64,000 nucleotides of DNA, taken from positions 100,810 to 164,809 of the forward strand of contig CAYJQU010000001.1 of assembly GCA_964372495.1 (NCBI GenBank). The letters are read 5' to 3'. Positions 57,001 to 64,000 of this stretch are shown here, one piece after another (within the stretch, counting starts at the first letter, position 1; each line of letters opens with the position of its first letter). Source of the stretch: an uncultured Gammaproteobacteria bacterium (GTDB taxonomy: Bacteria > Patescibacteriota > Microgenomatia > JAUYPR01). The position numbers are program-made.

Positions 57001-60000
57001 TACTGTTTCTTTCCGCCTACCGCCCACTGTCAAAACACAGTCAGTGACACTATTTCAATGGGATGAGACAAGATCTTCTTGGAAACCTCTTCCTTCTACG
57101 CTGGCGGATGGAGTAGTAAGCGCAACCATTGATCGTCTCGGTATCTACGCTGCGACAACCACGACGCCTTCTCCCTAGGAACCTCTCTCCATTGCCATCA
57201 TTTTGCTCAAAACATCCCTATTGACATGGGTGTGAAAAGTGTGTTGAATGGGAATATATACCATGAAATGGTATAAAGTGGAAAATACATGTTCCTTGGT
57301 GACTACTATCATACGCTTGATGATCGAGGGAGACTGTCGCTCCCCAAGAAGATGCGTGCGCTCCTTGAGGGAGAGCCGGTGATACTCACTAAAGGGTTTG
57401 AGCCATGCATTATGGGGTACCGGAAAAGCTCGTGGGAGGCCCAAACGAGTGAACAATTGGCCACATCGGTCTCTGATAGAGGCGCGCGTGACTTGCGCCG
57501 GTATATGTTTTCAGGAGCGCAAGCAGTTGAGGTGGATAAACTAGGAAGAATGCTCTTGCCGCAAGGACTGGCGGAGTATGCGCACCTTTCGGGCTCGGTG
57601 GCAATCATTGGTGCAGGGGACCATTTTGAGTTATGGGATAGCAAGACCTGGGAGTTATACGTAAAGGCACTTGAGCAGCAAAATCGTTAGCCATGTCCCG
57701 GTGCTTCTGGCGGAGGCAGTAGAGGCGTTGCAAGTGCGGCCTGGGAAATGGTATGTCGACGCGACACTCGGTGGCGGAGGACACACGCGTGCGATTCTGG
57801 ATTGCGGTGGTAAAGTGCTGGGTGTTGATCATGATCGACGCGCTATAGAGCGGGCAACGCACGAGTTAGAGAAAGAAATAAAGCGAGGCAACGTTATTGT
57901 AAGAAAGGCCAATTTTGTTGAAATGAGCATGTTAACGAAGCGAGAACACCTACCTATCTCAGGAATTCTATTTGACCTAGGAATGTCCAGTCTACAGCTT
58001 GCAGAAAAGCGCGGTTTCAGCTTCGTGGACGAAACGCTTGACATGCGCATGGATGAGGAACTGGGGGTTACTGCGAAAGACTTGGTCAACGTTCTTTCCC
58101 AGGAAGAACTCAAAATGCTCTTTAGGCGCTACGGGGAAGAGACACGTGCGGGTTCCGTAGCTGCCCGCATCGTCGACGCACGCAAAAAAAGACCAATTCG
58201 CGCTGCTCGCGAGTTGGCCCAGATCATTTCTGAGAACCGTTCGGTTCGCGGTCTGCATCCGGCTACCAAAGTGTTCCAGGCACTGCGGATAGCGGTAAAT
58301 GACGAGCTCAATAACCTACGCAAAGCACTGCCGCAAGCTATTGAGCTCGTCCAACCGGGTGGGCGGGTGGTGGTGATATCCTTTCACTCACTTGAGGATC
58401 GGATCGTGAAACAATGCTTTCGGTCTTATTCGGATTCGGGTAAAGCTTCCATTCTCACTAAAAAGCCGGTCCTACCTAGTCAGAGTGAAGTAGCAGAAAA
58501 CCCCAGAAGTCGCAGCGCAAAACTGCGGGTGGCGGAGCGTAGGCTGGAACCAGAAGGAGCGCACGCATGAACAGTAAAGTGCGTCGAGCGCTGTTCTCTA
58601 TAGGGGCAGGGATTCTTGCCTTGAGCCTGTTGCAGTACTTTTTGACCAACATGTTGGCCACAAGAGGCGAGGAACTGTCCGAGCTTCTTGCCGAGGAGAA
58701 ACTGCTGCGGGAGGAACACGAAAACTTACTTACCGAGACGGTCATGCTTTCCTCACTTACCCGCGTTCATAAGAAGGCTTCCGAACTTGGGATGATGACT
58801 GCACACCGCTACACGTATCTTACTTCGAACGACCTCGCACAGAAACCACAAGAAACCGCCATTCGGTAGTACAAGGGATGCGCAGCCGAATCTTGATACT
58901 TTTTATCTGTTACTTTCTGGCAGCTTTGTGTATTGCTGCCCGGCTGTTCTATTGGCAGGTGGTGATGGCTGAGACGCTGGCTGCTCAGGGCAGTGGGCAG
59001 TACTGGGCGGCAGAGGAGATTGCTCCGTCACGCGGCGATATTCTGGCTGCAGATAAATTTCCACTGGTCACCAACCAGCCTGCGTTTGAACTGTACGCGG
59101 TTGTGCCGCAGCTGAGTATTTCCAAAGAAGACCTTGCGGGAAAGATTAGTCCTATCCTGGAGTCATATGAGCAACGTTTATCCTCCCCCTCTGCCCAACT
59201 TACTGGGGCCGAAATTGAGCAGCGGACAAGGGAGCGTCTCGAGACATCGCTAGCAGTATGGGTCAAGCTTTCCGAGAAGGTTCCTGAGCAGGTGAGGGTT
59301 GCCATTGATGCGTTGGGGATTTCGGGTCTGGTGTGGCAGCGGAAGCAATTGCGTATTTATCCGGAAGCATCGATGGGAGCACACGTGTTGGGCATTGTTA
59401 GTGGCGATGAAGCTGGCAAGGATACTGGCTATTTTGGTCTTGAAGGTAAATATAACGGGGAGCTGGCAGGGCGCAAGGGGATTATACGGCAAGAGCGGGA
59501 TGCAAAGGGGCTGCCAATACTTCTGGGGGGATATGATGTGTTACCAGCGGAACATGGCAGGACGCTTTTGACCACTGTTGATCGCGCAATGCAGCTTACG
59601 GTACAGCAGCGTCTTACCGAGGGGGTTGAAAAGTATGGCGCTAAGGGCGGCACCGTGGTTGTTATGAATCCAAAGACCGGAGGTATTTTGGCGATGGCCT
59701 CAATTCCCGGGTATGACCCGCGCTATTGGCATCAGGTTACTGCAGAAAGCATGCGCAATCCGGCTACCGCTGACACGTATGAGCCGGGGTCAACTTTCAA
59801 GGCCCTGGTTATGGCAGCTGTATTGAATGAGGGCCTTGTTACCCCGAGTACGAAGTGCCCAAAATGTGATGGTCCAGTGTCAGTGGGTGGATTTGCCATC
59901 CAGACTTGGAACAACAAATACTACCCTCAAACGACGATGATCGATGTGCTGGCACATTCGGATAATGTTGGCATGGTATATGTGGGGCAGCGGTTAGGCC

Positions 60001-63000: not shown

Positions 63001-64000
63001 ACCGGTGCGTACCTGTTCAAAAGAGGACTGCTTGAGAATACGTTGCCTGCTATACAGAGGAATCCGACCGGCGAGTACTTTCTTACGGATATCGTGCAAT
63101 TGGCGATCGACCGTGGGTTCCGGGTGGTGGCGTACCGCTTGCCGCACACGGATGAATGGGTGGGGGTAAATACACCTGAGCAACTGGCAGCAGCGAACGA
63201 TCTTATGCAAAAGCGTTTGAGGCAAGAGCTATGAAACGAATTCACTTTATGGGTATTGGCGGCAGCGGGGCGTCTGCAGCGGCTGCGGTTGCTGCCCATG
63301 CCGGGTTTAGCGTAACAGGTTGTGATACTGCCGGGCAGACTGAGTATAGCGGGAGCTTGCCTTCGCTAGTCAAGTGGCATCCGAAACACGACCCGATGCA
63401 TCTTGCAGGGGTGGACCTTTTAGTACTGTCACCCGCCGTGTCCGCACTTGATCCTACGAATTCGGAATTGAGGGAGGCTATCGCGAACAACATCCCTGTC
63501 ACGACGTGGCCACAGTTTGTTGGGCAGGTGCTGCAAAAGGGGAAAGTTGTCCTGGCGGTCTGTGGCACACATGGTAAGTCAACCACCACAGCGCTCATTG
63601 GCCTTATGCTTGAGGAAGCTGGTTTAGATCCGACGGTGATGGTAGGAGCCGTAGTTCCGAAGTGGCAGGCAAATTATCGCGTGGGGGAATCGAGCTACTT
63701 TGTCATTGAGGCAGACGAGTACAACAACAGTTTCCATGCTTACCATCCCAGTCTTATCGTACTAACCAATCTGGAGTACGACCATCCGGAGTTTTTTTCT
63801 TCGTTTGGGGAGATGGTAAAAAGCTTTGTGCAATTTGTCGGGAATCTGAAGAAGGGGGGAGCCTTCGTTTTTGACCCCCAAGATCCAGGAACAAACAAAC
63901 TGCGTGCATTGCTGCAAGTCAGGAAGGTACCCGCCGCCATGCGGCACATTACAGAGGCGGACCAGGTACTTGCGCGAAAGGCCGTTCATATTCCCGGGGA

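Follow-up and report, generated by a model that had tools for sequence, protein, structure and literature searches.

A bacterial division and cell-wall (dcw) cluster that runs from murE to murC without murF, mraY, murD, ftsW and murG raises the question of whether its owner builds peptidoglycan by a reduced or unusual route. Such a cluster lies at the right end of a 64-kb piece of contig CAYJQU010000001.1 (positions 100,810 to 164,809), from an uncultured bacterium placed by GTDB in the Patescibacteriota; this piece at its full length is called the window. From 57289 to the window end, eight genes were found head to tail on the + strand, with assignments backed by Pfam and NCBIfam; their order is mraZ-rsmH-ftsL-ftsI-GNAT-murE-NTase-murC, in which GNAT is an acetyltransferase gene, murE encodes a short MurE of 423 residues and NTase a GlmU-type nucleotidyltransferase of 248 residues (Table 1). 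A preliminary description of this DNA had given the same order at the same coordinates, together with the junctions TAATG, which holds the murE stop and the NTase start, and ATGA, which holds the NTase stop and the murC start; both were read directly. The overlap of these stop and start codons indicates co-translation of murE, NTase and murC in one operon. The 5' end mraZ-rsmH-ftsL-ftsI-murE is collinear with the dcw cluster. Our answer, which we consider quite probable as a whole, is that the locus is the front half of a standard Patescibacteria dcw operon with an active, lineage-wide trimmed MurE, an autonomous half of GlmU and a GNAT insertion.

The short MurE and its distribution

The protein aligned with the MurE model TIGR01085 (412.5 bits, cut-off 257.3) over model positions 74-471 of 472 and also exceeded the cut-off of the equivalog model NF001126 (386.5 bits against 373). 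A Pfam search of the 423 residues returned the central domain (Mur_ligase_M, PF08245, residues 33-235, 161 bits) and the C-terminal domain (Mur_ligase_C, PF02875, residues 257-389, 111 bits) and no N-terminal domain PF01225. The P-loop lies at G32-T41, so the earlier observation that it stands near residue 33, with the N-terminal UDP-binding domain absent, was correct. Alignments to solved MurE structures began only at residues 90-136 of the latter (95 in Thermotoga maritima, 96 in Escherichia coli, 90 in Staphylococcus aureus); about 75 N-terminal residues, which make up the uridine-binding beta-sheet core of domain 1, are therefore missing.

What is left resembles canonical MurE (4BUB of T. 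maritima, 2WTZ/2XJA of Mycobacterium tuberculosis, 1E8C of E. coli and 4C12 of S. aureus) in its central and C-terminal domains, which aligned over their full length at 30-36% identity. The linker helix, the P-loop, the positions for Mg and the carbamyl-lysine and the HxHLDYH motif are retained, as is the amino-acid pocket of R311, EDPR and GKGHE. Across 40 aligned short forms G32-T42, E104, H108, H132, D134, H136, K146, R306, D307, K310, R311, E330-R333 and G387-E391 are invariant. These are the sites at which roles in catalysis and substrate binding are to be expected, among them the P-loop, the H130-H136 motif, EDPR and GKGHE. The AlphaFold2 model, for which 40 short homologues were used, has very high confidence (pLDDT 94.3, pTM 0.92) and begins with a single N-terminal helix (residues 2-20), which leads directly into the P-loop strand. 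With Foldseek, the top matches of this model were MurE structures, ternary complexes included, with a query-normalised TM-score of 0.85-0.89 and an rmsd of 1.8-2.8 A over about 410 columns. The layout of a central plus a C-terminal domain is also that of FolC/FPGS, MurT and the C-terminal module of cyanophycin synthetase, but the protein scored 412 bits as MurE against 136 as cyanophycin synthetase and 72 as FolC, and the DUF1727 C-terminal domain of MurT was not seen in it.

Homologues were taken as the best 120 database matches. Of these, 54 are short (395-456 residues, without PF01225) and 66 are long (463-546 residues, with PF01225); those with a named source belong to Patescibacteria or Microgenomates among the short forms and to Chloroflexi or Anaerolineae among the long ones. 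A scan of the GTDB species representatives, which do not include the source genome, gave 80 loci. A domain-1 hidden Markov model (HMM) built from the long forms matched murE at its 5' end in all 49 Chloroflexi-type loci, whereas it matched none of 33 independent Patescibacteria-type loci in any frame within +/-10 kb. Short MurE is thus a lineage trait, found in at least 33 species-level Patescibacteria genomes. In the Patescibacteria loci the gap between ftsI and murE is mostly 1-130 bp, so that there is no space for domain 1. An N-terminal helix is conserved in 51 short forms and has its homologue in the final helix ahead of the P-loop of the long forms; its position 10 is an invariant His in the short forms and Arg in the long ones. 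The full-length Chloroflexi and Anaerolineae enzymes are the nearest sequence relatives (45-50% identity, the same level as among the Patescibacteria short forms). They keep PF01225 (49/49 loci) and are encoded outside a dcw cluster, and neither is true of the short MurE, whose gene lies, like canonical murE, in the ftsI neighbourhood of the cluster, here with GNAT interposed.

A frameshift, misassembly or wrong start that conceals a normal N-terminal domain is, in our judgement, extremely unlikely. Beyond the unusual length of MurE nothing speaks for it, and the truncation withstood a frameshift test set beforehand. From 64 full-length homologues the N-terminal 110 residues were taken and searched against all six frames of the window (tblastn and HMM); only residues 78-110 of these N-termini matched, from 61253 on, and no remnant of domain 1 was found in any frame of the window, the part upstream of 61253 included, which excludes a frameshift or mis-start. 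The reading frame of murE cannot be extended upstream because the intact GNAT gene ends 36 bp before it. The NCBI assembly and a Logan assembly made independently of it contain identical MurE proteins, and the same architecture recurs at the 33 independent loci. A domain 1 encoded separately nearby was likewise ruled out by the 0 of 33 matches, with the 49 Chloroflexi-type loci as positive controls.

MurE is not the only trimmed ligase. The MurF of the two closest relatives of the locus (408 residues) has no match to the E. coli-type model before position 89, and MurF begins at about model position 86-99 (of 453) in eight of ten further Patescibacteria loci (Table 1). In L033, L058, L035 and L022 it has instead an N-terminal extension of about 180 residues that has no Pfam match. 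MurC and MurD retain domain 1: MurC of the window carries PF01225 at residues 3-102, and MurD is full-length in the longer loci of relatives. The ligases of the longer, peptide-bearing substrates, MurE and MurF, have thus lost the uridine module, and MurC and MurD have not.

The short MurE is predicted, most likely, to perform the ATP-dependent addition of a diamino acid to UDP-N-acetylmuramic acid (UDP-MurNAc)-L-Ala-D-Glu, and it would hold this substrate through domain 2. In solved MurE structures domain 2 makes most of the substrate contacts (PMC3829189). On the simplest reading, its contacts to the peptide and to MurNAc suffice for MurE and MurF. Alternatively, the short MurE, and with it the relatives' short MurF, may no longer recognise the nucleotide. 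It would then depend obligately on a complex with MurC, MurD or the co-translated NTase, the partner supplying a UDP-binding surface or channelling the substrate, or it would use, like MurT, a precursor without a UDP link, such as a lipid-linked one. Within the Mur-ligase superfamily FolC, MurT and cyanophycin synthetase lack domain 1 as well, and their substrates are non-UDP. Consistent with such a change are the loss of domain 1 from only the two late ligases, the translational coupling of the NTase to murE here, its place directly after murE in nine loci and one in-frame fusion of the MurE C-terminal domain to an NTase. In most other short-MurE loci, however, the NTase follows murA or is absent, so that the pairing of MurE with the NTase is not obligatory, and the sole fusion lies on an odd 2.6-kb contig without the rest of MurE. 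Moreover, domain 2 already bears most of the contacts, and the canonical nature of MurA, MurB, MurC and MraY favours the normal UDP-linked route. We therefore hold a nucleotide-blind MurE to be unlikely. Little probability is also given to the broader claim that MurE and MurF shed domain 1 across a large part of the Patescibacteria since the nucleotide handle is no longer recognised by them alone; if true, ultra-small bacteria would assemble peptidoglycan in the cytoplasm by a different logic.

The amino acid added by MurE was considered from the EDPR motif at E330-R333, which aligns with DNPR of the M. tuberculosis enzyme and DDPR of the T. maritima enzyme. Canonical enzymes have DNPR when they add meso-diaminopimelic acid (mDAP), DNPA in S. 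aureus (Lys) and DDPR in T. maritima (Lys); here the Arg of DNPR is kept and its Asn is replaced by Asp. The preliminary description was right about the motif, but a link between EDPR and the truncated form was not supported: the motif occurs in 53 of 54 short matches and in 63 of 66 full-length Chloroflexi-type matches. It is therefore not distinctive of the short form and was rejected as a marker of it; in the sequences compared it is shared by the Chloroflexi-Patescibacteria MurE clade as a whole. The Asn and Arg of DNPR bind the distal carboxylate of mDAP (PMC3829189), and L-ornithine is usually present in the peptidoglycan of Chloroflexi (PMC3368417). Among solved MurE structures, that of T. 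maritima, an enzyme which adds Lys, is the closest. Because Asp replaces Asn as in that enzyme, and because of the L-ornithine of Chloroflexi, it is plausible, on this indirect evidence, that position 3 of the stem peptide holds another residue than mDAP.

A stand-alone GlmU half and an inserted acetyltransferase

The NTase gene had been described as encoding a GlmU N-terminal-like enzyme without the acetyltransferase domain, coupled between murE and murC, and this was confirmed. GlmU models matched only at positions 1-243 of about 450 residues; for TIGR01173 the match covered positions 3-243 with 204.8 bits, below the full-length cut-off of 366.85. The motifs MAGGKGTRMNSGIPK, GTAHA, YGD, GLGRI, NTG, EYFLTD and GVN align with GlmU structures, and the G-x-G-T-R-M...P-K signature of the GlmU pyrophosphorylase (uridylyltransferase) domain is present. 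Neither a Hexapep nor a left-handed beta-helix (LbH) acetyltransferase domain was found in the protein, which ends at residue 248 with its stop overlapping the murC start. Other sugar nucleotidyltransferases were ruled out by their scores: RmlA_long reached 83 bits (cut-off 320), MurU 33 (cut-off 250) and GalU 33 (cut-off 327) against 205 for GlmU, and in the PDB the GlmU match had 138 bits and all others at most 38. The preference for GlmU over RmlA and GalU in the preliminary description was thus well founded, and on these scores its proposal of a GlmU half that supplies UDP-sugar locally is the best reading of the NTase.

A truncated call of a bifunctional GlmU was excluded by the overlapping stop codon and by the close homologues of about 250 residues. 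The best 120 homologues are all 242-282 residues long and from Patescibacteria, with the exception of one fusion. Like bifunctional GlmU and the engineered fragment GlmU-Tr331 of E. coli (PDB 1FWY), the NTase has the pyrophosphorylase domain and its signature motifs. Unlike bifunctional GlmU, it is a natural stand-alone protein without the LbH domain for trimerisation and acetyl transfer, and it is encoded in a dcw operon. Isolated N-terminal fragments of E. coli GlmU reportedly keep uridylyltransferase activity. Its place beside murE, at first thought unusual, recurs in dcw clusters of Patescibacteria. In addition to the nine loci in which it directly follows murE, it follows murA in six, and in L073 and L013 a bifunctional protein of NTase and LbH occupies the post-murA position instead.

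The NTase is predicted to turn N-acetylglucosamine-1-phosphate (GlcNAc-1-P) into UDP-GlcNAc for MurA and MurG. A stand-alone GlmU half implies that GlcNAc-1-P is obtained otherwise than through the bacterial GlmU acetyltransferase; the acetyl group would come from another enzyme or with salvaged GlcNAc. The LbH protein at 41891-42508 was rejected as the missing acetyltransferase, as it is a WcaF-type polysaccharide O-acetyltransferase within a glycan cluster.

The GNAT gene lies on the other side of murE, and the two proteins could together replace bifunctional GlmU, with GNAT acetylating glucosamine-6-phosphate or glucosamine-1-phosphate like the eukaryotic GNA1 and the NTase uridylylating the product. 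Their position at either flank of murE in one operon would fit such a division of labour, as would a weak PseH match of GNAT and the surroundings of its closest homologues outside Patescibacteria, among GFO/IDH/MocA, epimerase and DegT genes. The sequence matches speak against it. The GNAT fold is clear (PF00583, 65.7 bits), and the best matches were RimI (TIGR01575, 51.6 bits, below the cut-off of 86.4) and, in the PDB, archaeal protein N-alpha-acetyltransferases (35 bits); no GNA1 structure was matched at E<=1e-3. Moreover, GNAT stands at this junction in no more than 3 of 34 Patescibacteria loci, namely the window, L083 and L084. The NTase-only family, by contrast, is widespread in its absence. 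The ftsI-murE junction elsewhere holds YdjM, open reading frames without assignment, or murF. A GNAT that partners the NTase is accordingly unlikely here, and it is not a general solution in the lineage.

The gene is instead a clade-specific insertion, given the 3 of 34 loci and the other cargo at the same junction, and the earlier view of GNAT as an insertion between ftsI and murE holds. It was probably acquired by horizontal transfer. Twelve GNAT homologues were found, three of them in sister contigs. Others, the closest outside the clade of the window, are 52-56% identical and include one in a 4.26-Mb genome, too large for this lineage. There (L086/L087, 5001-5489) a solute-binding protein gene lies on one side of the homologue, and on the other side lie genes for GFO/IDH/MocA oxidoreductases, for an epimerase and a BNR protein, and for a DegT aminotransferase. 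This setting suggests that the gene was transferred horizontally and is connected with amino-sugar metabolism.

Two further arrangements of the NTase were seen. In L088 (839-2143, protein P0191, 2.6-kb JGI contig) the MurE C-terminal domain is fused in frame to the GlmU-like NTase and followed by murC. Because this contig lacks the remainder of MurE and has an unrelated gene for a solute-binding protein upstream, the locus may have decayed or be a chimera. A HAD-family gene adjoins the NTase in several loci (L085 12050-12721, L023 and L073), and L013 (14923-16671) encodes an NTase+LbH+HAD fusion of 582 residues. This neighbourhood hints at a sugar-phosphate mutase or phosphatase in the supply of UDP-GlcNAc.

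The extent of the operon

The absence of murF, mraY, murD, ftsW and murG between murE and murC, as it had been described, was confirmed, and none of the five was found elsewhere in the window either. The first 57 kb contain no mur genes and hold a large glycan-synthesis cluster instead. Taken alone, this would fit a truly condensed cluster from which the five genes were lost or dispersed, with a reduced or unusual wall pathway as the consequence. The window, however, ends within murC, after 770 bp of the gene. In the closest relatives L083 and L084 (MurE 57% and 59% identical), which share the upstream synteny of the window back to DUF4012-RecO-GlyRS, the order is GNAT-murE(short)-NTase-murC-murB-murA-murF-mraY. 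The cluster is therefore not condensed, and its strongly condensed appearance in the preliminary description is an effect of the window edge. L085 (MurE 47% identical) has murE-NTase-HAD-pgeF-murC-murB-murA-ddl-murF, and the recurrent order in Patescibacteria is ftsI-murE-(NTase)-(pgeF)-murC-murB-murA-(NTase)-(ddl)-murF-mraY, extended in longer loci by murI, full-length murD (TIGR01087 positions 1-439), ftsW, murG, ftsA and ftsZ. At least 20 other Patescibacteria loci have this rearranged but complete order, including murD, ftsW, murG, ftsA and ftsZ. A loss or dispersal of the five genes is thus very improbable.

Compared with the canonical order mraZ-rsmH-ftsL-ftsI-murE-murF-mraY-murD-ftsW-murG-murC-murB-ddl-ftsQAZ, the first five genes stand here in the same order, and the gene set of the relatives is overall the canonical one. 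The difference is that a murC-murB-murA block comes directly after murE, and murF, mraY, murD, ftsW and murG come later in the relatives; NTase, PgeF, HAD, MurI and GNAT are lineage-specific extras. The layout is no peculiarity of this genome but usual for the lineage, and the locus is an ordinary member of it. [quoted passage not shown] No wall genes need be missing, because an ordinary Patescibacteria operon is cut by the window edge.

Several points weigh against the combined reading of an ordinary operon with an active trimmed MurE and an autonomous GlmU half. The Logan contig of this locus stops 950 bp into murC, so that the continuation is drawn from the relatives; an exact 41-mer search of JGI metagenomes for sequence beyond the window gave no match. 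In L044 (4603-6135), from a metagenome-assembled genome (MAG) labelled Woesebacteria, MurE is full-length with PF01225 (510 residues), so that either the trait is not universal or this contig is misbinned and possibly from Chloroflexi. Our scans covered the window and the loci, and another murE of full length may exist elsewhere in the genome. Without the uridine site, MurE could also differ in its use of substrates. Finally, the sole LbH protein in the window is the WcaF-type O-acetyltransferase, and a source of GlcNAc-1-P was not located.

Neighbouring genes and meaning

The features are collected in Table 1. The ftsL-like gene has weak scores, and its position between rsmH and ftsI is conserved in relatives. 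For ftsI the top NCBIfam matches were SpoVD and PBP2, each below the equivalog cut-off. Public gene calls begin at 57701 for rsmH (L001), at 58965 for ftsI and at ATG 60686 for GNAT (164 residues), the last being the likely start. A promoter and terminator scan of 56900-64000 gave counts not above those of shuffled sequence, and tRNA and Rfam scans of the window gave no matches.

Table 1. Coordinates of the genes discussed, in the window unless another locus is named
Feature	Position	Strand	Evidence or remark
mraZ	57289-57690	+	PF02381 107 bits; TIGR00242 116.3 bits (cut-off 98.35)
rsmH (mraW), 16S rRNA m4C1402 methyltransferase	57671-58570	+	TIGR00006 298.5 bits (cut-off 154.3)
ftsL-like small division protein	58567-58869	+	PF04999 18.9 bits and NF053549 26 bits, both below cut-off
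ftsI, class-B penicillin-binding protein (transpeptidase)	58878-60608	+	PBP_dimer and Transpeptidase domains
GNAT acetyltransferase	60665-61180	+	PF00583 65.7 bits
murE, short form, 423 residues	61217-62488	+	TIGR01085 412.5 bits; NF001126 386.5 bits
GlmU-type NTase, 248 residues	62488-63234	+	GlmU models, positions 1-243, 205 bits
murC, 5' part, 256 codons	63231-64000	+	TIGR01082 208 bits over model positions 1-226
C-methyltransferase	1417-2742
Carbamoyltransferase	5246-7156
DegT aminotransferase	9557-10672
WcaF-like LbH O-acetyltransferase	41891-42508
Wzy_C polymerase	43374-45032
Mannose-1-P guanylyltransferase	50647-51774
Bac_transf priming transferase	51783-52433
MurF without domain 1	L084 6994-8220; L085 18361-19614		also in L010, L012, L046, L056, L027 and L054

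Directly upstream of mraZ lies the block DUF4012-RecO-GlyRS with a protein of 295 residues that has no Pfam match (56291-57178); the whole block spans 52437-57178. This arrangement upstream of mraZ is conserved in many Patescibacteria lineages (L005, L012, L021, L035, L042, L043, L054, L056, L058, L074, L079, L083, L085). The preceding part of the window (1-52433) is a very large cluster for glycan or exopolysaccharide synthesis with at least 12 glycosyltransferases and several PMT_2/DUF2079 membrane proteins. In many dcw clusters of Patescibacteria the peptidoglycan editing factor PgeF (Cu-oxidase_4) is encoded between murE, or the NTase, and murC (L021, L028, L035, L042, L043, L070, L079, L085), and L056 has an amidase in its place. 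L023 (3360-5666) encodes a MurC::MurB fusion of 768 residues (Mur_ligase, Mur_ligase_M, Mur_ligase_C, FAD_binding_4 and MurB_C). Typical Patescibacteria (or Chloroflexi) dcw loci were also present in GTDB-representative MAGs titled Gammaproteobacteria, Pseudomonadales, Bathyarchaeia, Limnocylindrales or Methanosarcinales (L012, L023, L028, L030, L033, L035, L042, L061, L076, L079, L082); these titles are probably wrong, or the contigs misbinned.

Public pipelines label the proteins without domain 1 plainly as MurE. In the literature no paper was found on truncated MurE, MurF or GlmU in CPR or Patescibacteria; the searchable literature is incomplete, and this negative is therefore weak evidence that the trimmed enzymes are undescribed. 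MurE and MurF in the trimmed form found across the lineage, along with the stand-alone GlmU half, make up a real variant of a known system, which appears to be undescribed. If active, the trimmed ligases would represent the minimal functional Mur ligase and reveal which substrate contacts are dispensable, with a bearing on the design of inhibitors against domain 1 and on the economy of reduced genomes. For the GlmU half, possible routes to GlcNAc-1-P are salvage from a host, a separate acetyltransferase or a putative HAD-type mutase encoded beside the NTase in some relatives, and the route that is used bears on the host dependence of episymbiotic bacteria.

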